Source: an uncultured Selenomonadaceae bacterium
GTDB taxonomy: Bacteria > Bacillota > Negativicutes > Selenomonadales > Selenomonadaceae
DNA: 64,000 nucleotides
Assembly: GCA_905234365.1 (NCBI GenBank)
Contig: CAJOHI010000007.1
Span: 11,343 to 75,342 of the forward strand
Reading direction: 5' to 3'
Part shown: in pieces, positions 28,682 to 55,745 of the stretch
Numbering within the stretch: position 1 is the first letter of the stretch
Layout: each line of letters begins with the position of its first letter
The notes under the pieces: model-generated
Told to the model about the DNA's origin: nothing
The model's database searches: none
The model's input: the letters and a program-made list of their open reading frames with translations, nothing else
Made by a program: the position numbers and the translations under genes

Positions 28682-28685
28682 TTTA

Positions 28686-30061: not shown

Positions 30062-30691
30062 TCAAATTTTTATATTTGACTTTATAATATCAAATTTTTT
30101 CTGACCAATACCGCGTACATTTTGTATTTCTTCAATGGACTTAAATAAACCGTTGTCATGCCTGTATTCAATTATTCTCTCCGCCATCTTTGGACCTATA
30201 CCTTTTAGCGTTTGCAATTCTTCTAAATTTGCAGTATTAATATTAACCATTGTGTCATTGATTTTTGACTCTTTATTGCTGCTGTTGGTTGAAATATTTT
30301 CATCATCACTTTCAATACTTTTGATAACTTTTTCCGGAATACGAATATGTTGACCGTCGGATATAGTTTCCGCCATATTAAAATTATCAATATCGGCCGT
30401 CGGAAGGAGACCATCGCAAGCATTGACGGCATCGGCAACTCTCAAGTTATCTTTGCTGCTTGACAGCTCAACCATTCCAGGCTTATTGACTGCACCTGTA
30501 ACGTATACAAAAATGGTTTTGCTCGGTATCTCGGTTAAGTTTTCATCTTCGATTGAATTTGAATTAGCACTGCTTAGATTAACATAATCGTCGTCATTGG
30601 GAATAAAACTATAACCTATTATCAAAAAAGCAAACACCAATAAAAGTATCATTGAAGGTTTAAACATTGGCAAAATCAACACCTCCGTCAA
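30062..30691 (-). CDS. comEA: ComEA family DNA-binding competence protein (SLBB + tandem helix-hairpin-helix)
   Basis: N-terminal TM helix, SLBB-like IFVYVTGAVNKPGMVEL, and C-terminal NINTANLEELQTLKGIGPKMAERIIEYR...IRGIGQKKF. Confidence 0.8.
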   Translation of the reverse strand: MTEVLILPMFKPSMILLLVFAFLIIGYSFIPNDDDYVNLSSANSNSIEDENLTEIPSKTIFVYVTGAVNKPGMVELSSSKDNLRVADAVNACDGLLPTADIDNFNMAETISDGQHIRIPEKVIKSIESDDENISTNSSNKESKINDTMVNINTANLEELQTLKGIGPKMAERIIEYRHDNGLFKSIEEIQNVRGIGQKKFDIIKSNIKI

Positions 30692-30787
30692 GAATTTATC
30701 AAGTCATCAAATATTGTTTATACTAAAAAGCCATGAAGTTTTTTATCACTTCACAGCTTATAGTTAATGACTTATATTATGATCCGA

Positions 30788-32200
30788 TTAAATTGTATGC
30801 AGTTGAATTGAACTTGTACCGCCTTCACCATATTTAATGCCGGAAGTCAAAACTACTAAGTCACCTTTTTTAACAATGCCGTGTTCCGTTGCACTTTTTG
30901 CAGAAAATCTTATCATTTCGTCCGGATTCATCCAAGGTACACCAGGAATTGTAAAGACTCCCCAACGTAAATTCAAATGACGTGCAACCATGTAATTTGG
31001 CGCAAATGCAATGATATCAGCTTTCGGACGATATTTTGATACTATGCGAGTTGTATAACCGGATTTTGTCGGCGTGATAATTGCCTTAGCGTCAAGTTCA
31101 TAAGCAAGTTGAACGGTAGCATGAGCGATTGCGTCAGTTTTTGAATATTTATGACCGAGACCCTTAGTCAAGAAAATTTCTTTGTATTCGAGTGATTCTT
31201 CCATACGCAGTGCAATACGATTCATAGTTGCCGCAGCTTCAACAGGATGCTTGCCGCTTGCCGTTTCACCACTGAGCATTATAGCATCAGCACCATCAAG
31301 GATTGCATTACCAACGTCAGAAACTTCAGCACGAGTCGGACGAGGATTTTCTGTCATTGATTCAAGCATTTGAGTTGCAACAATAACCGGCTTTCCTGCC
31401 TCATTGCACTTTTTGATAATCTCTTTCTGAATGATAGGAACATCTTCCGCCGGAATTTCAACGCCTAAGTCACCGCGAGCAACCATTATTCCGTCAGAAG
31501 CAGCAATAATTTCGTCGATATTTTTAACACCTGCAAGATTTTCAATCTTCGGAATGATTTCCATATGGCCGCCATGTTTTGCAATTAAATTGCGAATTTG
31601 CTCAACATCAGAAGCACGCTGAATAAATGAAGCGGCAACAAAATCCATATCATTTTCAATGCCGAAAATTAAATCTTTCTCGTCTTGTTCGCTAATTGCC
31701 GGAAGTCCAAGTTCAACACCAGGCGCCGCAACACGTTTGCGAGTAGACATTTTACCGCTGTTGAGAATTTTTGTCACGATGTCTTTGCCTTGAATTTCTT
31801 CGACAAGGATTTCAACGAGACCGTCAGAAAGCAAAAGTTTATCTCCAGGTTTAACTTCGCTGTAAAGCAATTTGTGACTTACTCCAACATGAGTTTCGTC
31901 GCCAGGTTCATCGGATTGCGTAAGGATAAATTTATTACCGGCAACAAGATTGACGCTGCCGTCTTTAAACTCACCAAGACGCATTTCAGGACCTTTTGTA
32001 TCAAGGATTAAAGATATGACCTTTTTTGACTTCTTTGCAGCTTCACGGACACGATTAATGCGTTTAAGGTGTCCTTCATGATCGCCATGAGAAAAGTTAA
32101 AGCGAGCGCAGTTCATACCGTTTTCAATGAGCTTTTCGACGACACCTTCCGCGTCAGTAGCCGGACCTTGTGTACAAATAATTTTTGTCTTTTTCAGCAT
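30788..32200 (-). CDS. pyk: pyruvate kinase
   Basis: 470 aa: TKIICTQGPA...GMNCARFNFSHG...MVARGDLGVEIP... Confidence 0.97.
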   Translation of the reverse strand: MLKKTKIICTQGPATDAEGVVEKLIENGMNCARFNFSHGDHEGHLKRINRVREAAKKSKKVISLILDTKGPEMRLGEFKDGSVNLVAGNKFILTQSDEPGDETHVGVSHKLLYSEVKPGDKLLLSDGLVEILVEEIQGKDIVTKILNSGKMSTRKRVAAPGVELGLPAISEQDEKDLIFGIENDMDFVAASFIQRASDVEQIRNLIAKHGGHMEIIPKIENLAGVKNIDEIIAASDGIMVARGDLGVEIPAEDVPIIQKEIIKKCNEAGKPVIVATQMLESMTENPRPTRAEVSDVGNAILDGADAIMLSGETASGKHPVEAAATMNRIALRMEESLEYKEIFLTKGLGHKYSKTDAIAHATVQLAYELDAKAIITPTKSGYTTRIVSKYRPKADIIAFAPNYMVARHLNLRWGVFTIPGVPWMNPDEMIRFSAKSATEHGIVKKGDLVVLTSGIKYGEGGTSSIQLHTI

Positions 32201-32306
32201 AAATTAACAAACCTCCTGACTTTATTTGAATTAAAGTTTATTTGTTATATTATACAATATTTTCTGACAATTACAATTAAAAATTTCAATTACGTTCATA
32301 CAAATA

Positions 32307-33392
32307 TTACTTATCTATTGGAATTGCATAAAGTACAGTTTCAGCAGATGAATAAGAATGATGTCTAAGAAAGAATTTGTATTTCTTTTTCTTAGTTTCA
32401 AATTGCTTTGCATAATTGTAAATATCTATAATATCGTTTTTTCTATGATATGTGCATACTGCAAGTTTAGGCATATTATTTTTTATTGTCTTCTCACTGC
32501 CTTTGAGAGCCTCTAACTCACTGCCCTCAATGTCCATCTTGATGAAAGTTACTTTTTCATCTTTAACTATATCGTCAATAGCATAAACTTCTATTTTATT
32601 ATTTGTTGTTGAATAAGAAATACTTGAAGTTGTTGGAGAAGCCGAATTTACATCAAAATACAATGTGTCTCTTTTACTCCATACCCCCCCCCTTATAACC
32701 TCAATATCCCTCATGTTGTCAGTGTTTTTTCGTAACATTGCTATATTATTTTCTAAAGGTTCAAAAGCAAAAATTTTTTTATAATTGTCATTTACAAATT
32801 CATCATATTTTAATATGGTGTCACCATTAAAAGCACCACAGTCAACATAAATTTCTTCATGAGGATTAATATTATAAGTTAACTCGTTAAAATATTGATT
32901 CTCACAAGAAACGTTTATTATATCTTCACATTCTCCAGTAGATTTTGCTTTTACTAGGGCTTTTAACGTTCTTTTTGAAAGACCATCGCCCAATGAAGTT
33001 GACATTTCAGACAATATATCATTGTTTTCACTAAGCCATTCTTCGTTCCAAGACCAAGTCCAAGCTGCATTCCAAATTATATATATTTTTTTATAACGCA
33101 TTAACGCAGGATTATTTTTCATTATTATCTTTGACTTTAAAATATTAATAAAACCATTAACTAAACTGTAATTATCAAAATCGTCAATAAAATTTGCTAT
33201 ATTTTCGACCTTAACATCATCAATAAAAGTATTAGGTTTATAATATGCTTCATCAACAACAAAAGCCGCAGTTGTTATCCCATTGTTAAATAAAAAATCT
33301 TTAATCTCTTTAGAAACAACAGAGTTTCCATAAATTAAAACAGGCTTATTTAATTTTTTTAATTCAGCAATAGTTTCTCTTTCACTCAACAT
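32307..33392 (-). CDS. FkbM-family SAM-dependent methyltransferase containing an in-frame G9 tract
   Basis: FkbM core YVDCGAFNGDT...FAFEPLENN...IKMDIEGSELEAL. GGAGG lies 7 nt before ATG 33392 (the track ORF runs to 33437 and would overlap fliI). Confidence 0.85.
   Translation of the reverse strand: MLSERETIAELKKLNKPVLIYGNSVVSKEIKDFLFNNGITTAAFVVDEAYYKPNTFIDDVKVENIANFIDDFDNYSLVNGFINILKSKIIMKNNPALMRYKKIYIIWNAAWTWSWNEEWLSENNDILSEMSTSLGDGLSKRTLKALVKAKSTGECEDIINVSCENQYFNELTYNINPHEEIYVDCGAFNGDTILKYDEFVNDNYKKIFAFEPLENNIAMLRKNTDNMRDIEVIRGGVWSKRDTLYFDVNSASPTTSSISYSTTNNKIEVYAIDDIVKDEKVTFIKMDIEGSELEALKGSEKTIKNNMPKLAVCTYHRKNDIIDIYNYAKQFETKKKKYKFFLRHHSYSSAETVLYAIPIDK
32684..32692. repeat. homopolymeric C9 (G9 on the coding strand) inside the FkbM gene
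   Basis: Counted directly: ata-ccccccccc-ttataacc. It codes VIRGGVW. This is one of only two G/C runs longer than 5 that I found in the window. Confidence 0.95.
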
Positions 33393-33417
33393 AAAATTAC
33401 CTCCATAATTAAAATTC

Positions 33418-34755
33418 TCAAGTATTATTGCCTGCAATGGCTATTAATTTTTTTTCGGTATTTTGATAAGTATCAACTTCAAAAATACCTTGCACTAAAA
33501 ATTCATTTATTTTATCAATCTTTGCTATTGCCGAATCAATCCGCTTACTGGAGCCTTTAACATAAGCACCGATATGAATTAAATCTTCAGCGTCTTTATA
33601 AACCGCCATTAAAGCACGCATATTTTGAGCTGCTTGTAAATGTTTTTTAGTTACGACTTCATTCATAACACGGCTGACACTTGCAAGCACGTCGATTGCC
33701 GGAAAGTGATTTTGTGCGGCGATTGAGCGACTCAAAACGATATGACCGTCGAGTATTGAACGAACGGCATCGGCTATTGGTTCATTCATATCATCGCCGT
33801 CAACCAATACGGTATAAATTCCTGTGATTGAACCGGTATCGGAAGTTCCGGCACGTTCCAAAAGTCGAGGCAATAAAGCAAAAACGGAAGGCGTATAACC
33901 TCTGGTTGCCGGCGGTTCGCCAATCGTTAAGCCAACTTCACGTTGCGCCATTGCAAAACGTGTTACCGAATCCATCATCAAAATAACTTTATGCCCTTGA
34001 TCTCTAAAATATTCGGCGATAGCTGTACCTGTCATTGCGCCTTTAATTCTGACGAGTGCCGGCTGGTCTGAAGTTGCAACGACGACGACGGAACGTTTTA
34101 AACCTTCCTCGCCTAAATCGCGTTCAATAAAGTCACGAACCTCACGACCACGTTCACCAACTAAAGCAATAACACTGATGTCGGCTTCCGTATTTCTTGC
34201 GATCATCGAAAGCAGAGTTGACTTACCAACACCGGAACCTGCCATAATTCCAATTCGCTGACCGTCACCTAAAGTCATTAAACCGTCAATCGCTCTGACG
34301 CCGACATATAGTGATTGATTTATTCTTGGACGTGTCAAAGGCGGCGGCGGCGGTGCCATGAGAGGATATTCAATCTTGCTAAAAATCGGACCTTTGCCGT
34401 CCATTGGATTACCGAGACCGTCAAGAACTCTGCCTAATAATTCGTCACCAACTTTGACCTGCAACATTTTTTGCGCCGCTATAACTTCACAACCTGGACC
34501 TACGCCTTGCATTTCACCAATCGCCATGAGCATGACAAAACCTTCACGAAAACCGACGACTTCAGCAGGTATTGGCGGATAAGTCTCAACTTTTGAAATA
34601 ACATAACACAATTCGCCAACACTGACAGGCGGACCTTGTGACTCAATGACGAGACCGACAACTTGAGTGACTTTGCCGGTGAGTTTAATTGTCCTTGCAT
34701 CTTTTATGACATCTATCAGCTTTTCTAAATTAATATCATTTTTAATCTTCGCCAT
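33418..34755 (-). CDS. fliI: FliI/YscN-family type III (flagellar) export ATPase, without neighbouring fliH/fliJ
   Basis: Walker A GSGVGKST, then VIALVGERGREV...MMDSVTRFAMAQREVGL...PSVFALLPRLLERAG. AGGTGA RBS plus ATG 34755 (the track ORF starts at GTG 34764). Confidence 0.85.
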   Translation of the reverse strand: MAKIKNDINLEKLIDVIKDARTIKLTGKVTQVVGLVIESQGPPVSVGELCYVISKVETYPPIPAEVVGFREGFVMLMAIGEMQGVGPGCEVIAAQKMLQVKVGDELLGRVLDGLGNPMDGKGPIFSKIEYPLMAPPPPPLTRPRINQSLYVGVRAIDGLMTLGDGQRIGIMAGSGVGKSTLLSMIARNTEADISVIALVGERGREVRDFIERDLGEEGLKRSVVVVATSDQPALVRIKGAMTGTAIAEYFRDQGHKVILMMDSVTRFAMAQREVGLTIGEPPATRGYTPSVFALLPRLLERAGTSDTGSITGIYTVLVDGDDMNEPIADAVRSILDGHIVLSRSIAAQNHFPAIDVLASVSRVMNEVVTKKHLQAAQNMRALMAVYKDAEDLIHIGAYVKGSSKRIDSAIAKIDKINEFLVQGIFEVDTYQNTEKKLIAIAGNNT

Positions 34756-36661: not shown

Positions 36662-37303
36662 ATGAATTTAAAATTTCATAAGGCGGCATTGGCTTTAATT
36701 ATGTCGTCAAGTTTTTGTTTAACTTATAATGTCGAGGCTTCTTCAGTGCCAAGTGATGCTTCAAAATACAAAGGACACTATTACAAAGTTTATAATCGCT
36801 CATTAAATTGGCATGATGCAAAGAGTTATTGCGAAAATAAAGGTGGACACCTTGTAACAATAACCTCTTTAGGTGAGCAAGATTTTGTTGCCGATTTGAT
36901 AGCTGAGGACGGCAATAAAAATTGTTATTGGCTTGGCGGTCATAAAAGCAGCAAAGGTATTTGGCGCTGGGTTACGAATGAGCCTACGCCTTATGCTAAT
37001 TGGGCTAAAGGTCAGCCGGACAATTACACTGACGAAGAAGATTGCGTAATGATGTATCGCCGCAAAAATCCTGCATCTTCCAGCAGTATTGGACAATGGA
37101 ATGACATCTGCTGGGATGGAAACTGCAATAACGAAGACTTCTTTGGCGTTCGTAATTTTGGCTTTATTTGTGAATGGGATTCTAAGAGCGGTCCAAACGG
37201 CAGATACAATCGAAATGATGATGACGATTATGATGACTATGACGACGATGATAATTATAACAGGAATCACAGGCATAGAAGCAGACATGACAGATGGTGG
37301 TAA
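36662..37303 (+). CDS. secreted C-type lectin domain protein with QPD/WND sugar-binding motifs and a D/Y-rich then basic tail
   Basis: Signal peptide MNLKFHKAALALIMSSSFCLTYNVEA. CTLD landmarks are WHDAKSYCENKGGHLVTITS, CYWLGG, GQPDN, EDCVMM, QWNDICW and FICEW. The tail reads NDDDDYDDYDDDDNYNRNHRHRSRHDRWW. Confidence 0.8.
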   Translation: MNLKFHKAALALIMSSSFCLTYNVEASSVPSDASKYKGHYYKVYNRSLNWHDAKSYCENKGGHLVTITSLGEQDFVADLIAEDGNKNCYWLGGHKSSKGIWRWVTNEPTPYANWAKGQPDNYTDEEDCVMMYRRKNPASSSSIGQWNDICWDGNCNNEDFFGVRNFGFICEWDSKSGPNGRYNRNDDDDYDDYDDDDNYNRNHRHRSRHDRWW

Positions 37304-38627: not shown

Positions 38628-39770
38628 ATGTTTGATGTAATTATAATCGGTGCCGGATTTGCCGGTTCAGTTTTGGCGGAAAGATTCGCAACACAGCAAA
38701 ATAAATCTGTCCTGCTCATTGAACGCCGTAATCATATTGGCGGTAATTGCTATGATGAGCGTGATGATAACGGTGTTTTAATTCATAAGTACGGTCCGCA
38801 TTTACTTCACACTGACGATGAAGAAGTTTGGAAATATCTTTCGCAATTTGCTAATTGGGACGTTTATCATCATCACGTTCAGGCAATGATTGACGGTCAA
38901 ATTGTTCCTCTGCCTTTTAACTTGAATACTCTGCATAAACTTTTTCCGACGCCGCTTGCAAATAAACTTGAATCAGCATTGCTTAATCGCTACGATTATA
39001 ATTCAAAAGTGCCAATCCTCAAGTTGAAACAATCTACGGATAAAGATTTGCGTTATCTTGCTGATTATGTCTATGAGAAAGTTTTCCTGCATTATACTGA
39101 AAAACAATGGGGACTTTCACCGGAAAATATTGAAGGTGCCGTAACTGCTCGCGTACCTGTTTTCGTCGGCCGTGATGACAGATATTTTAACGACAGATTC
39201 CAAGCTGTACCTACAAAAGGCTATACCGAACTTTTCAAGAAAATGCTGAATCACAAAAATATTAAAATTTTACTCAACACCAGATTCAACGAACTTATGA
39301 GAGTTGACGGCGATAAAATTTTCTTCCTGGATCAACCTTTTGACGGTCAAGTAATTTACACCGGTCAACTTGATGAACTTTTCAACGAAAAATTTGGTTC
39401 TCTGCCTTACAGAAGTATTGATATGAAATTTGAAATTGTAGACACTGAAAATTATCAGCCTGCAGCGGTTGTCAACTATCCGAACAATTATGATTTTACG
39501 CGAATCACCGAATTTAAAAAGATTCATCCTATTAAATCAATTACGACAACAATTTTAAAAGAATATCCGCAGGATTATGTACCTGGAAAAAATACGCCAT
39601 ATTATCCAATTTTCACCGAAGAAAATCAAAAACGCTATGAGCAATATGCCTCAGCAGTCAAAGAAGTTAAAAATTTAACTGCCGTTGGTCGACTTGCTGA
39701 ATATCGTTATTACGATATGGACGACATTGTTAAACGTGCGCTTGATGTGTTTAAAACTTTCGGCGAATAA
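38628..39770 (+). CDS. glf: UDP-galactopyranose mutase
   Basis: FDVIIIGAGFAGSVLAERFA...IGGNCYD...HKYGPHLLHT...GRLAEYRYYDMD. Confidence 0.95.
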   Translation: MFDVIIIGAGFAGSVLAERFATQQNKSVLLIERRNHIGGNCYDERDDNGVLIHKYGPHLLHTDDEEVWKYLSQFANWDVYHHHVQAMIDGQIVPLPFNLNTLHKLFPTPLANKLESALLNRYDYNSKVPILKLKQSTDKDLRYLADYVYEKVFLHYTEKQWGLSPENIEGAVTARVPVFVGRDDRYFNDRFQAVPTKGYTELFKKMLNHKNIKILLNTRFNELMRVDGDKIFFLDQPFDGQVIYTGQLDELFNEKFGSLPYRSIDMKFEIVDTENYQPAAVVNYPNNYDFTRITEFKKIHPIKSITTTILKEYPQDYVPGKNTPYYPIFTEENQKRYEQYASAVKEVKNLTAVGRLAEYRYYDMDDIVKRALDVFKTFGE

Positions 39771-39787: not shown

Positions 39788-40555
39788 TTGGACGTAAAAA
39801 TTTTAGTTGCTACGCATAAGGAATATTGGCTGCCGAATGAAGATGTTTATCTTCCAATTCACGTTGGCTGCACAGGACAGGCTAAGTTTGGATTTGTTGG
39901 CGATAATACCGGTGATAACATTGCCGAAAAAAATGCTAACTATTGTGAGTTGACCGGTTTATATTGGGCATGGCGAAATTTAGATTGCGAATATTTAGGC
40001 TTGTGTCATTATCGTCGTTATTTTGGACATAAGAATTATTTTGACGGCACTGAAAAATTGAAGCAAAAAATTTTTCAACGTGCGGATTACGAAAAACTTC
40101 TGGAAGAAAACGAAATTATCTTGCCATATCAACGGCGATACTATATTGAGACCGTACGCAGTCAATATGAACATGCTCACAGCGCTCGTGATTTGGAGCA
40201 AATTGAAGATATTATTGCAAAACATCATCCGGATTATTTAAGGTCATTTCGTGCAGTAATGAATCGGCGAAAGCTGCATTTGTGGAATATGTTTGTTATG
40301 AAAAAAAATATGCTTGATTCGTATTGCAGTTGGCTTTTCGATATATTGTTCCGCTATGAAAAATGGATGGACGAACATAACTTGAGTGAGCAAAAGTGGC
40401 GTTTATTCGGTTTCATTTCTGAGCGACTTTTAGATGTTTGGCTGTTTGGCAAGAATTTAAAAAAAGCAGAAGTTGACGTGGTTATGTTGGAAAAAATTAA
40501 CTGGTTCAAAAAAGGCAGTGATTTTCTGCGTCGTAAATTCTTTGGACGCTCATGA
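39788..40555 (+). CDS. DUF4422-family glycosyltransferase (galactofuranosyltransferase-like)
   Basis: ILVATHKEYWLP...YLPIHVG...NANYCELTGLYWAWRN...LGLCHYRRYF. It follows glf by 17 nt. Confidence 0.8.
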   Translation: MDVKILVATHKEYWLPNEDVYLPIHVGCTGQAKFGFVGDNTGDNIAEKNANYCELTGLYWAWRNLDCEYLGLCHYRRYFGHKNYFDGTEKLKQKIFQRADYEKLLEENEIILPYQRRYYIETVRSQYEHAHSARDLEQIEDIIAKHHPDYLRSFRAVMNRRKLHLWNMFVMKKNMLDSYCSWLFDILFRYEKWMDEHNLSEQKWRLFGFISERLLDVWLFGKNLKKAEVDVVMLEKINWFKKGSDFLRRKFFGRS

Positions 40556-41073: not shown

Positions 41074-41275
41074 ATATATCACCGTTAAGAATATTAGGTA
41101 TGAAAATATATGTTTTACACAAATTTTAATAAAATACTTGTAATTATTCAATATGTGTTGTAAAATAGAAAAAATATTTGGAATTTTTCTTGTATTTAAT
41201 GATCGAGGTGATTTATAATTAAAATAAATTTTTTGTCGTTGTTAATTTTGATTTGAAAGAAAGGTGATTTTTTGT

Positions 41276-44200
41276 ATGGCTGATATCTATAATGATACGA
41301 GTAATACCATTATTGCAGGAACTATAGAAAATAATTTTATTTATAATGCCGCTGCTGATAATGTTACTATTAATGGCGGCACAAATGAAGATACTATTTA
41401 TACTAACTATAGTCTCCATGTGTCTATCAATAGTGGCATTGGTAACGATTCCGTTTATAACTACCACAGCGACAGCGTAACCATTGATAGTGGCGACGGT
41501 AATGATTCTATTTATAATGACTATGGCGACTACATTACTATTAGTAGTGGCACTGGTAGTGATTCGATTTATAACTACTATGGCAAATATGTTACTATTA
41601 ATGGTGGTGACGATAATGATTCCATTACGAACTACTATGGTCACATAACTACTATTAATGCTGGCACTGGTGATGATTCGATTTATAATTACTACGATCA
41701 TGATGTCTCTATTGTTGGTAGCGACGGTAATGATTTCATTTATAACGAACAGGGTAATGCTATTACTGTCAATGGTGGCACTGGTAATGATTCGATTTAT
41801 AATTCCGGCAACTACGTTACTATTAATGGTGGTGACGGTAATGATTCCATTAATAATGTCGGCGACAACGTTAATATTAATGCTGGAACTGGTGACGACA
41901 TTATAAGCCTCAGCAGCCTTTTTTATTGTAATGTCATTAAATATGCCAATGGTGATGGTAATGATACTATCTATGGTTTTGATTCAAATGATACTATTAA
42001 TATTACAAATGGCGATTATTCAACGCTGGAAAGTGGCGATGATGTAATTATTACCGTTGACAATGCCTCAATGCTCCTAAAAGACGCTAAAGGCAAAGCC
42101 ATTAATATAGCTAAGGAAATAACTACCACCATTAACAATGGATTTTATATTTCAAATTATAATGAAAATACTTTGATTAGCGGCAGTGATTATAATGATA
42201 CTATCTATAATAACGCAGTTAGAAATGTAACTATTAATTCTGGTGTTGGTAATGATTATATTTATAATCACGAAGACAGTGTGATTATTGACAGTGGTGC
42301 TGGTAATGATTCTATTTATAGCGATCTTGGTCAATATGTCTCTATTGATGGTGGCGCTGGCGATGATTACATTTATAGCAACGACAACAAAAAAGTTACC
42401 ATTAATGGTAGCGAAGGTAATGATATTATACATCTTAGCAACTACTATGGTGAATATTCTTCTTCATATGGCAATATAATTAATTATTCTGATGGCGATG
42501 GTAATGATACTATCTATGGTTTTGATTCAAATGATACTATTAATATTACAAATGGCGATTATTCGACGCTGGAAAGTGGCGATGATGTAATTATCACCGT
42601 TGGAAATGGTTCAATGCTTCTCATAGACTCTAAAGGTCAAACTATTAAAATAATTAAAAGAATTAATGCCATTAACGACGAATTGTATATTTCAAATCAT
42701 AATGAAAATACTTTGATTAGCGGCAGTGATTATGATGATACTATCTATAATGACGAAGTTAGAAATGTAACTATTAATTCTGGCACTGGCAATGATTCTA
42801 TTGGTAACTCTTTCGGTCGTTATGTCTCTATTGATAGTGGTGCTGGTAGTGATTCAATTTATAACTACTATGGTCGCTATGTCTCTATAAATGGTGGTAC
42901 TGGTGATGATTCTATTGATAATAATTACGGCGACAGAGTTACTATCAATGGTGGCGAAGACGATGATTCAATTTATAATCGTCATGGTCGCTATGTCTCT
43001 ATAAATGGTAGTGCTGGTGATGATTCCATTACGAACGACTCCAGCGCCGCCAATGTTACCATAAGTGGTGGCGAAGGTAATGATTCAATTAGGAACTATG
43101 AAGGTTATGCCGCATCTATCAATGGTGGCGAGGGTAGTGATTCTATTTACAATTCCGGCAACTATGTTACTATCAATGGTGGTGTCGGTGCTGATTCTAT
43201 TTATTCTTCCGGCGACAGAGCTATTATTAATGGTGGCGACAGTAATGATTCCATTAATAATGCCGGCGACCACATCACTATAAATGGTGGTACTAATGAT
43301 GATTCAATTACGAACTACAGCGGCGATTATGTTAATATTGATGGTAGTGAAGGTAACGATATTATAAGTCTCAGCAACTATGCTCGTTACAGTATTATTA
43401 AATATGCCAATGGCGACGGTAATGATACTGTTTATGGTCTTAATTATGATGATACTGTCAATATCACAAGCGGTGATTATTCAACGCAGGAAAGTGGCGA
43501 CGATATAATTGTCAGTGTCGGCAACGGCTCAATGCTTCTAAAAGACGCCAAAGGTCAGACACTTAACATTATTGGCAACAAAGTTATTGATAACGTAAAA
43601 AGTAATTTTACTTACAACTCTAATAAAACAGCTATAACTCTCGATTCAGTTTTTAGTGGCACTCTTGATTCAACTGATTATGATTCAACAGTCAAAACGA
43701 TTGATGCAACTAAAGTCACAAAAGCAATTAACATTGTCGGAAACAGTCTTGCTAACACCATTAAAGGAACCTCAAAAGCTGACACCATTTATGGCGGTGC
43801 AGGCAAAGATGTTCTTTACGGCAATAAAGGTGCTGATTTTATCGAAGGTGGCGCCGGTGCTGATACCTTATTCGGCGGTAAAGGTAAAGATACTCTCGTC
43901 GGTGGCAATGGTAAAGATGTTTTCGTTTACTTTAACGGTGACGGCAGCGACATCATCACTGATTATACTGCCACTCAAGACAGAATTTTAATGCAGAATT
44001 TGGAGTCTATGACTTCTTCGCTGAGTGGTTCTGACGTGGTTTTGACGGTTGGCAAAGGCTCAATTACCGTTAAAGAAGGTGTCAATAAAGCAATATCATT
44101 AATTGATCCTGACGGCAATGATATTTATTTAATGCAAGGCTCAAGCGGTAAAGACAGCTTAACAGGAAGTGCAAGCAAAGATACAATTTATGGCAATGGC

Positions 44201-44702
44201 GGAGCTGATTACTTGAGTGGTTAACGGCGGAGCTGGTGCAGACTCTATTGAAGGTGGCGCCGGTGCGGATACTATTATCGGTGGCAAAGGTAAGGATACT
44301 TTGACGGGTGGCAAAGGCAAGAATGTCTACATTTACAACAACGGCGACGGTAAAGACATTATCACGGATTATAAGTCATCGGACAAAATTCAAATTGACA
44401 GCAGCTATTCAACGCAGGTAAGCGGTCAAGATGTAATTATTAAAGTCGGCAGCGGTTCAATCACACTTAAAGACGCGATCGACAAGAAATTAAATATTGA
44501 TACTTCGCTTAACTATATTGAATCTGCATGGTTTGCTCAAGATGACAATTTTATAACTGATGATATTGACTCAATCTTTGAAACTGCGACAAATAATTAC
44601 AATGTCGGAAGTATTGAAGTCTTAAATAATTCAACAGACATTTTAACTGACTTCAGGAAAAATGATCGAACGCTTGCAAATAATAGTAAGTGTCCTAAAT
44701 AA
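41276..44702 (+). pseudogene. very large RTX-like / beta-roll repeat surface protein (~1140 aa if continuous), frameshifted at 44217-44224
   Basis: AAAGGTG RBS plus ATG 41276, with no N-terminal signal peptide. It carries dozens of 18-19-aa units of the form V(T/S)I(N/D)(G/S)G.G(N/D)DSIYN. C-terminal classical nonapeptides read GGAGKDVLYGNKGADFIEGGAGADTLFGGKGKDTLVGGNGKD. Frame 1 ends GGADYLSG-stop. The next frame continues NGGAGADSIEGGAGADTIIGGKGKDTLTGGKGK to 44702. Confidence 0.7.
41954..42790 (+). repeat. intragenic tandem duplication (~540-543 bp period) within the RTX-like gene
   Basis: gatggtaatgatactatctatggttttgattcaaatgatactattaatattacaaatggcgattattc... occurs at 41954 and again at 42497. 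atttcaaat.ataatgaaaatactttgattagcggcagtgatta occurs at 42149 and 42689. A more diverged third copy lies near 43390-43570. Confidence 0.85.
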
Positions 44703-48717: not shown

Positions 48718-49536
48718 TCACCACGCAACTATCGTTATACCATTATCTTCTGCAAGTGCTACCATTTTTTCACGCTCAACTAAAAGCGTTTTATCTGCTT
48801 CAATGGCAAGCGCTGTAGCACCGGATTGTACCATAATTTCAATAGTGTGATACCCAACAGTAGGAACGTCAAAACGATTATCCTGCTTTGGTTTTGAAAC
48901 TTTCGCGACTACTGCACCGCCGTTGGCAAGTTGACCGCCGCGAAGTATACAGGCATCAGTACCTTCAATCGCCTCAAGCGCCATAACTGCACGATTTTTT
49001 ACAACGACAGTCTGACCTATGTCAAAGCGTCCCAGTTCTTTAGCAATTCTCATTCCAAATTCCAAATCTAAACGTTCTTCGTCAGTTGGTTCACGTTTTG
49101 TAATTGTGCCGCGATGTGGCATTAACTTTCTGATTAGTGCTGTCTGGTCGAAAGTCTCCATGCCTGCCTTTGCCAATTCTCTAACAAACGCCAACATTAT
49201 AGTATCATCATTTCGATCCGGCAACGACATAATTAATTGCAACATTCTTGCATCTGGTATAACTGCACCGTTAAATAATAATTCCTTAGTGACTTTTCCA
49301 ATCATTGTAATTAATCTCAAATCCTTTGACTTGAGATAATTTAAAATTGCGTCCAGTTGTGCAACGCTAATCATTTGAAAGTCATTAGCAAATTGTGCAA
49401 TTTCCGGATCAGTTGCCGGCAGCAATCCAACTGCATAAACTTCGTAACCTAATTGCCTTGCCGCTCTTGCACATTCAACAGGCAATCTTCCTGCGCCTGC
49501 TAGTATTCCAAGTTTCTCCAAAAACTTCACTCCCAA
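48718..49536 (-). CDS. lpxI: UDP-2,3-diacylglucosamine diphosphatase LpxI (DUF1009 family)
   Basis: LGILAGAGRLP...DIGQTVVVKNRAVMALEAIEGTDACILRGG...KPKQDNRFDVPTVG. Confidence 0.8.
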   Translation of the reverse strand: MGVKFLEKLGILAGAGRLPVECARAARQLGYEVYAVGLLPATDPEIAQFANDFQMISVAQLDAILNYLKSKDLRLITMIGKVTKELLFNGAVIPDARMLQLIMSLPDRNDDTIMLAFVRELAKAGMETFDQTALIRKLMPHRGTITKREPTDEERLDLEFGMRIAKELGRFDIGQTVVVKNRAVMALEAIEGTDACILRGGQLANGGAVVAKVSKPKQDNRFDVPTVGYHTIEIMVQSGATALAIEADKTLLVEREKMVALAEDNGITIVAW

Positions 49537-49540: not shown

Positions 49541-51043
49541 TTACCTTTGATAATTTCTCGAATGAAACCAAATTGTTTTTAAATCACTATACTCGTCAAA
49601 AGAATACAAAGATTTATCTTTTCCCAATCCAGACTCTTTTACTCCTCCAAATGGAGCACTATTATCATCATTACCATAACTGTTAATATGAACTAAACCA
49701 GTCTCGATATTTCTTGCAACGTAATATGCTTCATCTAAATCATCAGTCCACACTGCTCCTGCCAACCCATAATCTGATGAATTAGCAATACTTAATGCTT
49801 CATCTACACCTTCTACAGGCAAAACAACAACAACTGGTCCAAAAATTTCTTCTACAACAACTTTTGACATTATTGAAATATTACTTATAATTGTCGGTTG
49901 AATACAACAAGCTTTTTCAGAATGCAATTTTTTATTTTGAGCTTGATAAACTTCTGCACCTTCATCTTTAGCCTGTTGAATATACTTTTGAATTTTATGA
50001 TATTGTTCAGGACTGACAACACAACCTACATTATTATCAGTATCGTAAGGGTCACCCGGCACGTAACGTTCGCATTCAAGTTTCAAATACTTTATAAAAT
50101 CATTAAACTTTGACTTATCTATAATAACTCTTGAAGGTGCAGAACAAATTTGCCCTTGATTATAAAACATATTATCAGCTAATACCTTTGCAGCTTCAGC
50201 TAAATTTGAGCAATTATTTGTAACTATATAAGGTCCTTTTCCGCCACATTCCAAAGCTACTTTCTTCATATTTGATTGACCTGAATACTCCAATATTCTC
50301 TTTCCGGTTGTACTTGAACCGGTGAAAAAAATTCCACGAACATCCTTATGCAAGGCTAATGCTTTTCCAGCTACTTCCCCATATCCTGTAACAACATTAA
50401 ACACGCCTGAAGGAATACCAGCTTCCCTAGTTAAGGCAGCAACCTTTAAAATTGACAGTGAAGACTGTTCAGCGGGTTTCATAACAATAGAATTTCCCAT
50501 AAGCAACGCAGGTGCAAATTTCCAAGCAGCAACAACCAAAGGATCATTCCAAGGTGTAATGGCGCCTACAACCCCAAGAGGAACTCTGATTATAACACCA
50601 AATTCACTACCTCTCGGTGGAATTGCCTTATCATAGTATTTATCAACAGCTTCCGCAAAATAACGAACCACTTCAATAGCTTTCGGTATAGAATCGTAAA
50701 AATAATTTTGATAAGATCTTCCCGTCTCATAAGTATCCAATAAGGCAAGTTCTTCTCTATTTTTTTCCATTAAATCTGCTAATTTTAAAAGAATAATTTT
50801 CTTTTCACTGGGAGGTAACATTGACCAAGAGCCAGAATAAAAAGATTTTTTTGCAAATTCAACTGCTTTATTAACGTCAACATCATCACAAGCAGCAATT
50901 CCTGAAATAATTAAGCCATCTATAGAAGAAATTTTTTCAATTGTTTTTCTATTTTCCGCTTCAACAAATTCACCATTAATATAAGCTCTTTTTTCAATAT
51001 TTAAGTTTTCCAACTTTTTTCTGACATTCATTTTATAAATCAT
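49541..51043 (-). CDS. NAD(P)-dependent aldehyde dehydrogenase family protein
   Basis: 500 aa: ITPWNDPL, FTGSSTTGKRI, ECGGKGP, catalytic Cys in NQGQICSAPSR, and EEIFGPV. Confidence 0.9.
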   Translation of the reverse strand: MIYKMNVRKKLENLNIEKRAYINGEFVEAENRKTIEKISSIDGLIISGIAACDDVDVNKAVEFAKKSFYSGSWSMLPPSEKKIILLKLADLMEKNREELALLDTYETGRSYQNYFYDSIPKAIEVVRYFAEAVDKYYDKAIPPRGSEFGVIIRVPLGVVGAITPWNDPLVVAAWKFAPALLMGNSIVMKPAEQSSLSILKVAALTREAGIPSGVFNVVTGYGEVAGKALALHKDVRGIFFTGSSTTGKRILEYSGQSNMKKVALECGGKGPYIVTNNCSNLAEAAKVLADNMFYNQGQICSAPSRVIIDKSKFNDFIKYLKLECERYVPGDPYDTDNNVGCVVSPEQYHKIQKYIQQAKDEGAEVYQAQNKKLHSEKACCIQPTIISNISIMSKVVVEEIFGPVVVVLPVEGVDEALSIANSSDYGLAGAVWTDDLDEAYYVARNIETGLVHINSYGNDDNSAPFGGVKESGLGKDKSLYSFDEYSDLKTIWFHSRNYQR

Positions 51044-51062: not shown

Positions 51063-52174
51063 TTAAATGAAACGATCATATTCAGGAATTATTTCAATCT
51101 TATCATGATCCATTTGCATAAGACGTATTAACTCTTTGTTAGTTTCATCACGCAAACAATGAAATTGACATTTCTCTACAGGATCTAACTCCTTCATCAC
51201 TTTTTGTCGTCTTTCACTGTGCCAAATAGTTTGAATCGAATCCTGCTTTGCATCTCCAACACAGAAATTTTTCTTGCCACGCCAATATGGACAAACATAA
51301 ACTCCGGAAGGACAAATCAACGTACGAAGATATGCTGCAGGACAAAAATGATAATCTTTTTCTTGAGAAGATTTTACACAATTCAAAGAATCATTCAAAT
51401 TAATAGCAGTTATGATTTTAAAGTTGTCAGTTTCTAATTCGTATAAACGTTTAATTTCAATTTTAGCCTCATTCATACGCTCTTGCGAATGGCGAACTAA
51501 TGAATGTACCCCCCCCCTACGTAGTTGTAACTTGGCTTTATTTCAATATAATCGCAGCCAATTTGCTTTGCAAGTACCGCTGCATCATAAATTTCTGATA
51601 TATTAGATTGTATACCAAATCCATCAGCTTCCGTGCGAATCAAAAAAGAAAAACCCAAATTTCCTCTTTTAATTTTTGCTAAATTTTTCATTCCTTCTAT
51701 TATGTGATTAAACGTAGATTTACCATCTTTTGTTGGTCTTAATTTACCGAAAGTTTCAGATGTTGCAGCATCCATTGATACTCTAGTCCAGCTTGCATAC
51801 TCAGCTATTTCATTCAAATATTTTGGTATGAAGTACCCATTTGTTGTTATACCTATTTTTATATCATGTGTTCCAAAGAATTTTATAAGTTCTCCGACTG
51901 CAGGATGTGCTAATGGCTCACCACCGCCAATTAGTATAACAGCTTTTACACCAAGGTCATATAATTCTTGTGCTAAATTCATCAAACGTTCCCTTGAAAA
52001 CGAAGTGCTGTTGCTTACTAAATCTTCACTTATGCAACCCGGACAAGCAAAATTACATACTTCTGTAGTATCCAATTCTACTACCAAAGGATTGCATTTC
52101 CATTTTTCATTTTGAAGTTGATTAACAACAAATTTTTGTTTTAATTTCCTAATAATATTCATTTTTTGTGGCAT
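51063..52174 (-). pseudogene. radical SAM enzyme with a Cys-rich C-terminal domain, split by a G9 tract (candidate phase-variable gene, OFF as sequenced)
   Basis: The N-part (51497-52174) carries CNFACPGC (CX3CX2C) and GGGEPL and ends ...SYNYVGGGYIH-stop just after G9. The C-part (51063-51476) carries CPAAYLRTLICPSGVYVCPYWRG...C...CQFHC. One extra G gives a continuous frame, ...YVGGGVHSLVRHSQERMNEAKIEIK... Confidence 0.75.
51509..51517. repeat. homopolymeric C9 (G9 on the coding strand) at the radical-SAM frame break
   Basis: Counted directly: tgaatgta-ccccccccc-tacgtag. Confidence 0.95.
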
Positions 52175-52186: not shown

Positions 52187-53362
52187 CTAAATATAAATAA
52201 CTTTTACTAAATCGGTAATTCTATTAATTTTATCTAACATTTCTTTCTCGCTATCGAATTTCAAAAATAAAACACCCAATTTATCTTTTAAATAATTTTC
52301 TATTTTGTACCCGGATTTCCACCATATAAATTTATCATATATATTATTTTTTATATCTTCTGAAATTATAACATCTTTTACTATGCCGTTTCGATCTCCC
52401 ATAATGCAGTGGCGACCACCATAACGTTGCGGTTCATACATTAAATAATTCTCAATCGGCATTCCACTTTCGGCTCGAACTATCATTTCAGACCAAGGGA
52501 TATCGCGAGCATATTCAACTGGTAAAGAATAAAAATCACCAGAACATCTGCGAGTTATTTCTATAATATAAGGTGTATTATTACTCAAGATATATTGAGC
52601 ATGAAAAATCCCATCAACTAGCTTTAATTCTTGTGCCAACTTTTCCATATCAAAAATCAAAATATTTTTATATTCTTCTATGTTAGTTGCTGGTCCAGCT
52701 GAAGAAGAAATAAGATAAGGATTTTTATAAGTATATTCATTGTCACTGAAGAAAGCTACGATTTTTTGATTTACAATAAAAGTTGAAAAACTGTGCATAG
52801 TACCAAATAAAAAAGGTTCAACAACAATAGTATTAACTCTTGTCATTTGAAAAGCCTTAATTATTGCTTGCTTCATTTCTTCATTATTGTTTGCTCTTGA
52901 GATACCCTTACCACCAGTTAAATCCACAGGTTTCACGATCACAGGATATTGAATTGAAGAAATTGCCTTATTTGTTTCTTCTACAGAATGAAAACTTTGA
53001 GCAATTGGAGAATGAATATTATATTTTTTAGTAATTTGTCGAAATGTATCTTTATGATGCAATTTATAAGTAGTTTCAAAGGAGTCATGACCAGGAAGAT
53101 TCATTTTTTCTGCAACATAGGATGCAGTTATAATGCCAAAATCATTTGCACATGAACAAATTGCATCAATTTTTAAATCTTTTGCCACTTCTAAGACTTT
53201 TTCTTTATCAGAAAAATCTACTTTATAATATTCATCAGAATATGAATGTCCAATTAGACTTGGATCATTTCCTGCAGTGATCACATGAAAACCCAATTTT
53301 TTGCCAGCTTCAATTAATGGTATATCAGAATGACTACCATTCAAAATTAATAATTTTTTCAA
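52187..53362 (-). CDS. ATP-grasp domain protein (carboxylate-amine ligase-like)
   Basis: 391 aa with a TTG start 7 nt after AAGGTGA (the RBS overlaps the lpxA stop). YPVIVKPVDLTGGKGIS...VVEPFL...IIEITRRCSGD is an ATP-grasp pattern. Confidence 0.8.
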   Translation of the reverse strand: MKKLLILNGSHSDIPLIEAGKKLGFHVITAGNDPSLIGHSYSDEYYKVDFSDKEKVLEVAKDLKIDAICSCANDFGIITASYVAEKMNLPGHDSFETTYKLHHKDTFRQITKKYNIHSPIAQSFHSVEETNKAISSIQYPVIVKPVDLTGGKGISRANNNEEMKQAIIKAFQMTRVNTIVVEPFLFGTMHSFSTFIVNQKIVAFFSDNEYTYKNPYLISSSAGPATNIEEYKNILIFDMEKLAQELKLVDGIFHAQYILSNNTPYIIEITRRCSGDFYSLPVEYARDIPWSEMIVRAESGMPIENYLMYEPQRYGGRHCIMGDRNGIVKDVIISEDIKNNIYDKFIWWKSGYKIENYLKDKLGVLFLKFDSEKEMLDKINRITDLVKVIYI

Positions 53363-53374: not shown

Positions 53375-54172
53375 TTAATTTCCATCTTCGCGTCTTTCAC
53401 GGCAAATACCGCGTTCTGCGTTTCTCAAAAATCTCAAGAAGTGCTCAACTTCTTCACATGAGTCAACTTCCTGCTCAATAACCGCGATCGCTTCAGTAAG
53501 AGTCAATCCTGAACGATAGAGGATTTTATAAGCCTTTTTAATATTGTGTCTCGCCTCAAGTGGAATACCTGCACGCGAAATGCCAACGCTGTTAAGTCCG
53601 ACAACTTTGGCCGGATGACCGTCAACAATCGTATAAGGCACAACGTCCTGGACAAGTTTACTCATTCCACCGACCATTGCATTGCGTCCGATTTTAACAA
53701 ATTGATGAACTCCCGCCATTCCGCCAATTACAACTCTGTCTTCAACGATTGCATGACCGGCACAGCTTGCCAAATTACTCATTATAACATGATTGCCAAG
53801 AATACAGTTATGAGCAACGTGTATATAAGCCATTAACAGACAATCATTGCCAATGCGCGTTTCATTTTCTTCGCCGGTTGCACGATGAATTGTTGCACCT
53901 TCACGAATTACAGTTCTGTCTCCGATAAAAGTGTAACTTTTTTCGCCTTTGAATTTCAAATCCTGCGGATCTTCGCCAACTGACGCAAATTGAAAAATCC
54001 TGCAGTCTTTACCGATACTTGTCCAGCCGTGAACAACTGCGTTCGGTCCGATTTTTGAACCGTCACCAATTTCAACATTGTCACCAATAACGCAATAAGG
54101 TCCAATCTCAACGTTATTTCCAATTACAGCACTTGGCGAAATCACAGCGCTTTCGTGTATATTTGCAGCCAT
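53375..54172 (-). CDS. lpxA: acyl-ACP--UDP-N-acetylglucosamine O-acyltransferase
   Basis: Hexapeptide repeats begin at IHESAVISPSAVIGNNVEIGPYCVIGDNVEIGDGSKIGP. The C-terminal helical domain reads LNSVGISRAG...AYKILYRSGL. The start is ATG 54172 (track ORF 54199). Confidence 0.93.
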   Translation of the reverse strand: MAANIHESAVISPSAVIGNNVEIGPYCVIGDNVEIGDGSKIGPNAVVHGWTSIGKDCRIFQFASVGEDPQDLKFKGEKSYTFIGDRTVIREGATIHRATGEENETRIGNDCLLMAYIHVAHNCILGNHVIMSNLASCAGHAIVEDRVVIGGMAGVHQFVKIGRNAMVGGMSKLVQDVVPYTIVDGHPAKVVGLNSVGISRAGIPLEARHNIKKAYKILYRSGLTLTEAIAVIEQEVDSCEEVEHFLRFLRNAERGICRERREDGN

Positions 54173-54444
54173 TTTTTTGCTTCCTGCCTTTACTATCATT
54201 TTTTACACCTCTCAGCTAAATTGTAGTTTTATTTTATAATCAGTAAATTTCATTGTTTTTTCACGTATAATAAAACCGCTTTTTAACTGATTTTAAGGCT
54301 TAATAATTTATTTCTTCTCACTTTATAGAGCAGATAAGCAATTATCTTTAAATAACTCTGATTATCTTTAGTTTTTATATTTTTAAGATTAAAAATTGAT
54401 TAGAATTACATTAAAATAACATTAGAAAAATTTTTATGCAATGA

Positions 54445-54885
54445 TTATAGGTCTGATTGATGTTTTAATGCAAATTTGAAATCAGCCGAAGCAACCATTT
54501 TATCATTAACATAACCGTCAGCATGAAGAACGCCAAAATCGCCGCGAACTTTTACAATCTCTGCCTTCGTGATAAGTTGATCGCCAGGTATTACAATTTG
54601 CTTAAACTTAATATTATCCATACCGCCAAAGAGTGCAATTTTACCTCTATGTTCCTCAGGATAAAGCATTGCAACGCCGCCGACTTGTGCCATTGCTTCC
54701 AAAAGAAGTACACCCGGCATTATTGGCGTATTTGGAAAATGTCCTAAAAATTGCGGCTCATTCATAGTTATATTTTTCAAACCGGTTGCTGACTTAAAAG
54801 GCTCAATTTCTAAAATTCTGTCAACTAACAACATTGGTGGTCTGTGCGGTAAAATTTTTTTAATTTCATTGATGTCTAATTCCAT
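54445..54885 (-). CDS. fabZ: 3-hydroxyacyl-ACP dehydratase
   Basis: MELDINEIKKILPHRPPMLLVDRI...FLGHFPNTPIMPGVLLLEAMAQ. AGGAG RBS before ATG 54885. Confidence 0.95.
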   Translation of the reverse strand: MELDINEIKKILPHRPPMLLVDRILEIEPFKSATGLKNITMNEPQFLGHFPNTPIMPGVLLLEAMAQVGGVAMLYPEEHRGKIALFGGMDNIKFKQIVIPGDQLITKAEIVKVRGDFGVLHADGYVNDKMVASADFKFALKHQSDL

Positions 54886-54908
54886 AATTTTCACTCCTAA
54901 ATTTAAAT

Positions 54909-55745
54909 TCAATTAAAATCAGCAAAAATCATCTTCGCAAGCTTAGTATTGAGAGCATGACCTGAAGCGGCAGCAATTATATGACCTTTGATAATTCCTG
55001 CAAGTCGCAAATCGCCAATTACGTCAAGAATTTTATGCCTTACCAATTCATCAGAATAAATTAAATCATTCAGCCAGCGTTCATCGTTATATACGATAAC
55101 ATTTTCTAAAGTGCCGCCGAGACCTAAACCCATTGAGCGCAACGCTTCAATTTCTTTTTCGTAGGCAATAGTTCGTGCAGGTGCAATTTCTTTTTCGTAA
55201 ACATCATCGTCAATAACAAAATCTTCGTATTGAATGCCGACAAGCGGATGCGGATTCACGGAAGTAAAACTGATTCGCAAACCGTCATAAGGCAGAGCAA
55301 TTATAAATCGGCGACCTTCTGAATTTAAATCATCGACGCGATAAATTTTATCAATAACAATTTCTTTACGTTCTGCTCCTTGCTCCTCAATGCCTGCCGA
55401 CTTTATGAGATTAAAAAAATCAATAGAATTGCCCATCATTACGGGAGGTTCTTCGGCGTCAAGTTCAACTATGCAGTTATCAATTTTTTGAACATGTAAT
55501 GCACTCATTAAATGCTCAATAGTAAAAACCTTTGCGCCATTTTTTTCAAGCGTTGTTGCTCTGACTGTTGTCGTTACATTCTCTGCTGCTGCTAGTATTT
55601 GCGGACTATTTGGTAAATCAACACGTTTAAAAATGATTCCGCTGTCAACAGGTGCGGATTTTAATTTCATCGTCACTTGTTGACCTGAATGTAACCCTAT
55701 ACCTGTGCAGGTTACTTCACTTTTCAACGTTGTTTGTTTTTGCAA
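54909..55745 (-). CDS. lpxC: UDP-3-O-acyl-N-acetylglucosamine deacetylase
   Basis: QKQTTLKSEVTCTGIGLHSGQ...TIEHLMSAL...HKILDVIGDL...SGHALN. AGGAGG lies 8 nt before TTG 55745 (the track ORF runs to 55766). Confidence 0.93.
   Translation of the reverse strand: MQKQTTLKSEVTCTGIGLHSGQQVTMKLKSAPVDSGIIFKRVDLPNSPQILAAAENVTTTVRATTLEKNGAKVFTIEHLMSALHVQKIDNCIVELDAEEPPVMMGNSIDFFNLIKSAGIEEQGAERKEIVIDKIYRVDDLNSEGRRFIIALPYDGLRISFTSVNPHPLVGIQYEDFVIDDDVYEKEIAPARTIAYEKEIEALRSMGLGLGGTLENVIVYNDERWLNDLIYSDELVRHKILDVIGDLRLAGIIKGHIIAAASGHALNTKLAKMIFADFN

Follow-up and report, generated by a model that had tools for sequence, protein, structure and literature searches.

A poly-G tract in a radical-SAM/SPASM gene of a rumen Selenomonadaceae bacterium as a putative contingency switch in the OFF phase

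Poly-G contingency loci are textbook knowledge for Campylobacter, Helicobacter, Neisseria, and Haemophilus, and the genes switched in this way in Campylobacter jejuni include methyltransferases and MeOPN transferases. To our knowledge, C. jejuni lacks mismatch repair of the MutS/MutL type. Here we describe a tract of the same kind in a stretch of 64,000 nucleotides from an uncultured Selenomonadaceae bacterium (GenBank assembly GCA_905234365.1, contig CAJOHI010000007.1, positions 11,343 to 75,342 of the forward strand; "the window" hereafter means this whole stretch). The tract, nine consecutive G residues (G9) on the sense strand, interrupts a gene for a radical S-adenosylmethionine (radical-SAM) enzyme with an auxiliary SPASM domain. 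We regard it as probably a classical poly-G contingency switch that was assembled in its OFF phase, judging from the comparative evidence given below. The proposed mechanism is that of the classical homopolymeric contingency locus (PMC11868660, PMC8355987, PMC6321876, PMC2831843). In C. jejuni, poly-G tracts underlie the phase variation of capsule, lipooligosaccharide (LOS), and flagellar-glycan genes (reviewed in PMC8355987 and PMC6321876); among the contingency loci of Neisseria and Haemophilus are, for example, the poly-G lgt LOS glycosyltransferase genes (reviewed in PMC11868660 and PMC5953494).

The window locus resembles the C. jejuni system in several respects: the G tract (8-11 residues) is intragenic and on the sense strand, the AT-rich genome is otherwise nearly without such runs, the switched genes encode accessory enzymes for the decoration of surface glycans (methyltransferases included), several genes per genome are independently switchable, and both ON and OFF lengths occur among strains (in the present case, among the homologues of related lineages). 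It differs in that the host is a diderm Firmicute, a rumen Selenomonadaceae and non-pathogen, that the target is a radical-SAM/SPASM enzyme, that MutS is intact in the window organism, and that two tracts were counted here in 64 kb. With the Neisseria and Haemophilus loci it would share localized hypermutation of a coding repeat by which surface-glycan genes are toggled translationally in mismatch-repair-proficient bacteria; the differences are those of taxon, niche, and gene family. The original prediction made on this DNA knew of no description of such switches for diderm Firmicutes. Our literature searches are consistent with this statement (phase variation combined with Selenomonas or Negativicutes gave no simple-sequence-repeat (SSR) switches), although an empty search is not proof.

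The tract was located as nine C residues on the plus strand (positions 51509-51517), corresponding to G9 on the coding (minus) strand and in the mRNA. The coding strand reads TAC GTA GGG GGG GGG TAC ATT CAT TAG across it, with the G's at 51517-51509. The gene (51063-52174, minus strand; 370 aa if the tract is G10) is thereby split into an open reading frame (ORF) of 225 aa (51497-52174) and another of 137 aa (51063-51476) in a different frame. The upstream frame, ...IKPSYNYVGGGYIH, ends with the stop codon at 51497-51499. When the tract was changed in silico to G10, the translation continued as ...YNYVGGGVHSLVRHSQERMNEAKIEIKRLYELE... and stayed open to the stop at 51063, giving a single ORF of 370 aa; G7 also gave a single ORF (369 aa). 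Truncated products were obtained with G8 (234 aa, with a stop 12 codons past the tract), G9 (225 aa), G11 (235 aa), and G12 (226 aa). The gene thus has an uninterrupted G/C homopolymer of at least 8 residues within the reading frame, at which the gain or loss of one unit toggles between full-length and truncated products: G9 is out of frame (OFF), and G10, G7, or G13 is in frame (ON). The frame arithmetic of the original prediction (the run of nine C, the upstream stop at 51497, the joining of the upstream frame to the 137-aa ORF in about 370 aa by one extra G, and the termination of G8 after 12 codons) was borne out in every part.

Such a run is beyond chance in this DNA, the background of which avoids runs of G and C. 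The GC content of the window is 36.1%, and the numbers of G/C runs by length were 15775 (length 1), 3401 (2), 153 (3), 11 (4), 1 (5), and 2 (9), with none of lengths 6-8; G and C runs are strongly depleted over the whole window. The two runs of nine, at 32684-32692 and 51509-51517 (both C on the plus strand), are the only ones of that length, as had been claimed. For runs of at least 9, an order-1 model gave an expectation of approximately 0.01, and extrapolation of the decay of the spectrum gave 5.6e-5. Of A/T homopolymers of nine, the window has one A9 and one T9. In terms of codon usage, GGG accounts for 27 of the 1256 Gly codons in the window (2.1%), five of these 27 being inside the two G9 tracts, and the expectation for three GGG codons in succession is about 1e-5. 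The over-representation of the tract relative to composition implies that it is selected and not accidental. As for the composition itself, relatives with 90% identical LpxA have a GC content of 51-55% against 36% in the window, and the lineage therefore appears to have drifted strongly towards AT.

The gene is otherwise in good order. The 225-aa ORF carries the radical-SAM core with the CX3CX2C motif at C40/C44/C47, and the 137-aa ORF is the Cys-rich SPASM part, which is lost from the 225-aa G9 product. In the repaired (G10) protein, Pfam detected PF04055 with 71 bits and the SPASM domain PF13186 with 25.2 bits (cut-off, 21.5). Membership in the radical-SAM superfamily is indicated by the invariance of C40-x3-C44-x2-C47 and of GGGEP (83-87) and by a fold that matches radical-SAM structures; an auxiliary Fe-S domain is indicated by the PF13186 score above the cut-off and the invariance of C278, C295, C336, and C340. 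More than 1000 homologues were found, and the top 120 were nearly all about 370 aa long (58-81% identity, 99-100% coverage). Aligned with 108 homologues, the repaired protein needs no gap, and at the tract its YNYVGGG-VHSLVRH corresponds to the consensus YxYxGGx-xHALVxH. In the AlphaFold (AF2) model of the repaired protein (pLDDT 92.2), the tract lies in a loop after the strand 209-213.

The main rival explanation is a fixed pseudogene: a -1 slip (G10 to G9) would have made the OFF state effectively permanent, the function being dispensable or reversion being kept rare by mismatch repair. We consider this unlikely. The tract is uninterrupted, and in an alignment of 109 sequences (108 homologues) the repaired protein kept all 83 invariant columns, 27 of them downstream of the frameshift, including Cys278, Cys295, Cys336, and Cys340. 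The ratio of C-terminal to N-terminal identity was 0.833, against 0.80-0.85 in intact homologues, so that the part behind the frameshift is as conserved as it is where the gene is intact. No lesion besides the frameshift was found in the gene, and both of its partners in a three-gene cassette, an ATP-grasp ligase and an aldehyde dehydrogenase, are intact. Further decay, which the original prediction had named among the signs of a fixed pseudogene, was seen neither in the invariant columns nor in the identity ratio. The explanation gains from the presence of an intact mutS in the window (9574-12156, minus strand; 860 aa; NF003810, 981 bits with a cut-off of 480), a gene that bears on the rate of switching and is not part of the switch; the organism is, from this gene, probably mismatch-repair proficient, in contrast to Campylobacter and Helicobacter, from which poly-G switching is best known.

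The comparison of tract lengths in related strains, proposed earlier as a check, was carried out for the Selenomonad-type homologues at two positions, site D (the codon position of the window tract) and site A (an N-terminal insertion site). A G tract is present in the radical-SAM gene in seven of nine Selenomonad-type lineages, and four of these seven are out of frame. At site D the states in three lineages were G9 off (the window), G11 on, and GGGAGGGGG off. The G11 sequence, TTC GGG GGG GGG GGC, is in frame and was found in four assemblies; it belongs to Red_deer_4_mag_143, a metagenome-assembled genome (MAG) of a Selenomonadaceae bacterium with 49% GC, 76% protein identity, and another genomic context. 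The third state is that of a sheep-rumen contig (SHIW14-1 scaffold_114599, our locus L064), in which positions 1170-1185 read AGGGAGGGGG; the interrupted tract, GGGAGGGGG, is out of frame, and one more G gives 370 aa. It looks like the remnant of a switch that was interrupted and locked off, and an interrupted, out-of-frame tract at the very same site speaks for the pseudogene explanation, since locking then occurs in the family. In the site A clade (84-93% nucleotide identity), to which ERR1278074_bin.57, SRR4435576, and ERZ27234820 belong, the states were G11 on, G10 on, G9 off, and G9 off, the native N-terminus being out of frame in the G9 members. The two homologues nearest to the window gene, with 81% and 79% identity, lack a tract, and no further G/C run of at least 7 was seen in the 40-odd kb flanking the Selenomonad-type homologue genes. 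The tract is thus kept among orthologues with a varying phase, in-frame and out-of-frame lengths being found at both sites D and A. One truncated homologue of 246 aa (P0144) has its frameshift further downstream, not at the site of the G tract, and was not counted.

Length variation within one strain was observed at the second tract. This G9 tract (32684-32692, minus strand) is in frame (AGG GGG GGG GTA, encoding R-G-G-V) inside a gene for an FkbM-family methyltransferase (32307-33392, minus strand; 361 aa from the ATG at 33392; PF05050 and TIGR01444), which adjoins fliI. The reads of the underlying study were obtained with HiSeq 2000 and assembled with IDBA-UD for single samples and with MEGAHIT (k up to 87) for one co-assembly of all animals (PMC7820578). 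The predicted G10 product of the methyltransferase gene (239 aa) and the 118-aa C-terminal remainder were found exactly on contig k87_6922178 (L047) of ENA ERZ1667847, and alignment of this contig with window positions 26614-34563 gave 0 mismatches and one gap, the extra G, over 7,951 bp. The single-sample assemblies have G9, and the contig of the MEGAHIT co-assembly has G10 (frameshifted); tract length is the only difference over 7,951 bp between two assemblies of one strain, which means that the FkbM tract slips in this strain. A G9 allele one step from ON would hardly be permanent if its sister G9 slips in the same strain, and this is a further argument against a fixed pseudogene. By tblastn, the window methyltransferase (our family F9) is homologous to FkbM genes that stand beside the radical-SAM cassette in other genomes; hence the two switchable genes may serve one pathway. 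Tracts were found at three different positions among the FkbM homologues. Apart from the window, the F9 gene of locus L031 is split at a G9 and that of L035 has a G9 in frame, both at positions other than that of the window.

At the radical-SAM tract itself, the assemblies were uniform. The window matches the 180,937-bp scaffold_62 of a red-deer/ruminant rumen metagenome assembly (ENA ERZ28573574). The 225-aa and 137-aa products of the G9 allele were found on four contigs, and the ATP-grasp and LpxA proteins on the same number. The window and the two contigs that were compared with it at the DNA level (L048 and L049) are one strain, with 0 single-nucleotide polymorphisms (SNPs) over 13.6-20 kb; L048 and L049 were for this reason not counted as independent replicates. 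This uniformity bears on the pseudogene explanation, in favour of which G9 is found in every cassette-bearing assembly, also in the pooled data, where the FkbM tract has another length. It bears also on the possibility that G9 is a homopolymer error of assembly or sequencing and that the true sequence is a G10 with an intact gene. Homopolymers are error-prone, and a 20-nt indel relative to two other assemblies indicates that the assemblies are imperfect. Against an error, G9 was obtained in at least three assemblies from different pipelines (the scaffold_62 reassembly, the k141 MEGAHIT contig, and the window), HiSeq 2000 is a four-colour instrument with a low indel error, and out-of-frame tracts recur across unrelated studies (WOLF17-1 / SRR4435576, SHIW14-1, and several GTDB MAGs). 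We therefore find an error very improbable.

A further possibility is recoding, in which the G9 allele would be expressed constitutively at a low level, through slippage of the RNA polymerase or a -1 shift of the ribosome on G_GGG_GGG, and the split would be no genetic switch. Transcriptional slippage is known to occur at long homopolymers, the run is formally a slippery heptamer, and a -1 shift on it reaches the downstream frame. The region downstream of the tract, however, showed no stimulatory RNA structure (the z-score of the minimum free energy was 0.12, and 103 of 200 shuffled sequences folded at least as well), and no Rfam family was matched. A programmed frameshift should moreover conserve the out-of-frame state, whereas the homologues are in frame (G11, G10, and G11) or without a tract. 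For these reasons the tract was rejected as a programmed -1 ribosomal frameshift site despite its slippery G run, and recoding in general appears improbable.

Returning to the contingency switch, several points weigh against it. The evidence for tract length comes from consensus assemblies. Exact G7, G8, G10, and G11 products of the window gene were absent from a collection of 15 billion proteins, as were the G8, G9, G10, G12, G13, and G14 products of the red-deer homologue, so that at site D no lineage showed a direct length polymorphism in these look-ups. All four contigs with the cassette have G9 and, where compared, are one strain, which neither supports stability nor is evidence of switching. 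With an intact MutS, slippage rates may be below those of Campylobacter, and L064 suggests that the family also yields locked-off alleles. Scans of JGI metagenomes, with a degenerate DNA pattern across the tract and with the repaired protein, found nothing. The slipped-strand ON/OFF switch of the original prediction is accordingly upheld by comparative evidence (the compositional outlier, the intact gene, the G9 and G10 forms of the FkbM tract, and the phases of the homologues), with no length variant at the tract itself.

If the tract is a contingency switch, slipped-strand mispairing during replication would add or remove a G. G10 (or G7 or G13) would then yield the full 370-aa enzyme, and from G8, G9, or G11 shortened products would result that lack the auxiliary Fe-S domain. 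With the FkbM gene as a second, separate switch (G9 ON and G10 OFF), a population would be a mixture of surface-glycan variants. The glycan could be that of lipopolysaccharide, of flagella, or of another envelope structure, and selection would presumably be exerted by phages, predators, or the host. We infer the elevated rate at the radical-SAM tract, its reversibility, the substrate of the enzyme, and the selective agent.

As to the substrate, the enzyme, a DesII-like radical-SAM/SPASM protein, most likely modifies a nucleotide sugar. In a Foldseek search of the model, the best match in the PDB was DesII (8hzv; E = 6e-14, TM approximately 0.62), and BlsE (7vob) followed with E = 1e-11 and TM approximately 0.63; SPASM and twitch enzymes and anSME were also among the fold matches. 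BlsE was the top PDB match by sequence profile. The substrates of the radical-SAM enzymes DesII (TDP-4-amino-4,6-dideoxy-D-glucose deaminase) and BlsE are nucleotide sugars or sugar nucleosides, and the folds of these two are the closest to that of the window enzyme. The gene neighbourhood offers a parallel: DesII is paired with the aminotransferase DesI, and related loci pair the window-type enzyme with an aminotransferase of the DegT family. The window-type enzyme differs from DesII and BlsE in its low identity (16-17%) and in regularly occurring with an aldehyde dehydrogenase and an ATP-grasp ligase. No NCBIfam equivalog scored above its cut-off with the repaired protein (the best had 72.9 bits against 380), and sequence searches of NCBIfam and the PDB gave weak generic radical-SAM matches only and no curated family. 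We did not accept the protein as a DesII orthologue, given the 16-17% identity to 8hzv, the absence of DesII from the PDB sequence matches, and the absence of an equivalog; the likeness to DesII is, on the predicted model, one of fold only. No relevant paper came up when the literature was searched for radical SAM, ATP-grasp, and aldehyde dehydrogenase in combination.

The cassette consists of the ATP-grasp ligase gene (52187-53362, minus strand; 391 aa; Pfam GARS_A and ATP-grasp; family F2), the radical-SAM gene, and the aldehyde dehydrogenase gene (49541-51043, minus strand; 496-500 aa; PF00171, 489 bits; family F1), in this order. It lies between lpxA upstream (53375-54199, minus strand; NF003657, 368 bits) and lpxI downstream (48718-49536, minus strand; LpxI_N and LpxI_C domains). 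In the relatives with 90% identical LpxA, lpxA is directly followed by lpxI-lpxB-msbA with no cassette between, and the cassette has 29-34% GC against 42-43% for lpxA and lpxI; from the adjacency of lpxA and lpxI in relatives and the low GC, the cassette is an inserted accessory unit. A role concerning lipid A deduced from its position was considered and found to be unsupported, as relatives lack the cassette there, its GC content is lower, and its contexts elsewhere are not those of lpx genes. The lpxI of the window is followed by lon and clpX, not by lpxB-msbA as in the relatives (compare loci L054-L063).

Among 39 related loci that were compared, all three cassette genes occur together in 31. 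In 31 of the 39, the F2 ATP-grasp gene adjoins the radical-SAM gene or is close to it, and in nearly all the F1 aldehyde dehydrogenase gene is next to the radical-SAM gene or a few genes away. Frequent companions are a DegT aminotransferase, a family 2 glycosyltransferase (GT2), two small membrane proteins of the EamA-like kind, methyltransferases (FkbM or others), a class-B radical-SAM enzyme, or NeuB. By their predicted gene content, the related loci have the make-up of a surface-glycan modification locus. The DegT, GT2, and two EamA-like proteins beside many of the related cassettes recall the three-component glycan modification of the Arn/Gtr type, with an aminotransferase, a polyprenyl-phosphate GT2, and small flippase subunits. 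The window differs from that type in having only the three core genes between lpxA and lpxI, with those partners not adjacent, and no transferase of the ArnT or GT-C type was identified.

The tracts of related loci in other phyla were counted in 37 GTDB-representative loci (394.5 kb). There were 10 G/C tracts of at least 9 against 1.1-1.7 expected (P about 1e-5, about six times the expectation) and 15 of at least 8 against 4.4-6.3 expected, and all 15 of the latter are G on the sense strand of a gene. The radical-SAM gene holds six of the 15, two of them G10 tracts within a single gene of Sedimenticola; the others are in, among others, genes for FkbM and other methyltransferases, the class-B radical-SAM enzyme, and NeuB. 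The G8-G11 tracts near the cassette are at positions 9297 of L031, 7438 of L032, 2069 of L036, 8086 and 11198 of L037, 6074, 6455, and 11715 of L041, 5427 of L035, and 7788 of L023, and ORFs are split exactly at the tract in L031, L032, L036, and L037. The tract-bearing MAGs are those of Thiotrichaceae, Syntrophaceae, Sedimenticola, Eubacteriaceae, and, by its label, Micrarchaeota. The window may be one instance of a broader pattern, which would be undescribed, namely that a conserved cross-phylum set of glycan-modification genes has repeatedly and independently gained sense-strand poly-G tracts at different codons; we propose it tentatively, and rate its chance a little below even. The set would comprise the core of radical-SAM/SPASM enzyme, aldehyde dehydrogenase, and ATP-grasp ligase, often with FkbM or other methyltransferases, DegT, GT2, and NeuB, and the groups concerned would be rumen Selenomonadales, sulfur oxidisers of the Thiotrichaceae and Sedimenticola type, and Syntrophaceae.

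Some other observations were made in the window and in the compared loci. L048 and L049 are identical to the window save for the 20-nt indel, which lies elsewhere, and a divergent contig end. The window is without 20 nt (GATAATCAGCACTATTACCG on the minus strand) near position 44221 (approximate) that are present in both contigs, and this loss splits a 1148-aa RTX-repeat protein into 986 and 161 aa (ORFs 41264-44224 and 44217-44702, plus strand). The RTX-repeat gene has internal repeats of about 500 bp with about 82% identity, and the 20-nt difference could be a real deletion or a difference between assemblies. In L049 (positions 1-760), the k141 contig follows the window to the start of fabZ, then has 33 differences in about 170 bp (window 54745-54918) and unrelated repeat-like sequence thereafter; this divergence may mark either a boundary of recombination at the strain level or a chimeric join. 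In L055, the msbA-like ABC transporter gene after lpxB (4254-5948) is split into 181, 201, and 188 aa in one single-sample assembly of a related Selenomonadaceae bacterium, and the same gene is a single ORF of 574 aa in six other assemblies. The split aldehyde dehydrogenase gene of L007 is due to a 44-nt deletion or an assembly gap, not to a homopolymer. An adenine-specific DNA methyltransferase-like gene of the window (18657-20582, plus strand; 641 aa) is followed by an 863-aa ORF without a family match (20586-23177, plus strand); the pair (18657-23177) may be a type III-like restriction-modification system, and no repeat tract was seen in it. The ORF at 36662-37303 (plus strand) encodes a 213-aa protein with a C-type lectin domain (PF00059, 63.8 bits); such a domain is uncommon in bacteria. 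The ORF is near glf (38628-39770) and a DUF4422 gene (39788-40555).

What is new in this locus is the host, a rumen diderm Firmicute with an intact mutS, the target, an uncharacterised DesII-like radical-SAM enzyme, and a gene set that appears to have repeatedly gained tracts across phyla. In this commensal of the rumen, whose MutS is intact, 64 kb of sequence contain two such tracts, and one of the two was seen in two lengths. For an extension of SSR phase variation to non-pathogens, the case is a definite one that can be tested without difficulty, since the reads are public (PRJEB34458, with samples from cow, sheep, reindeer, and red deer, SAMEA5961697 among them). The finding singles out a so far unstudied pathway of sugar modification as a determinant of the cell surface that would be subject to fluctuating selection, and genes that are called pseudogenes at G tracts in MAGs may be OFF phases. 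If the broader pattern is true, multi-locus SSR phase variation of surface glycans would be common in non-pathogenic commensal and environmental bacteria that, at least here, bear MutS, and the seeming confinement of such genomes to pathogens would be an artefact of sampling.

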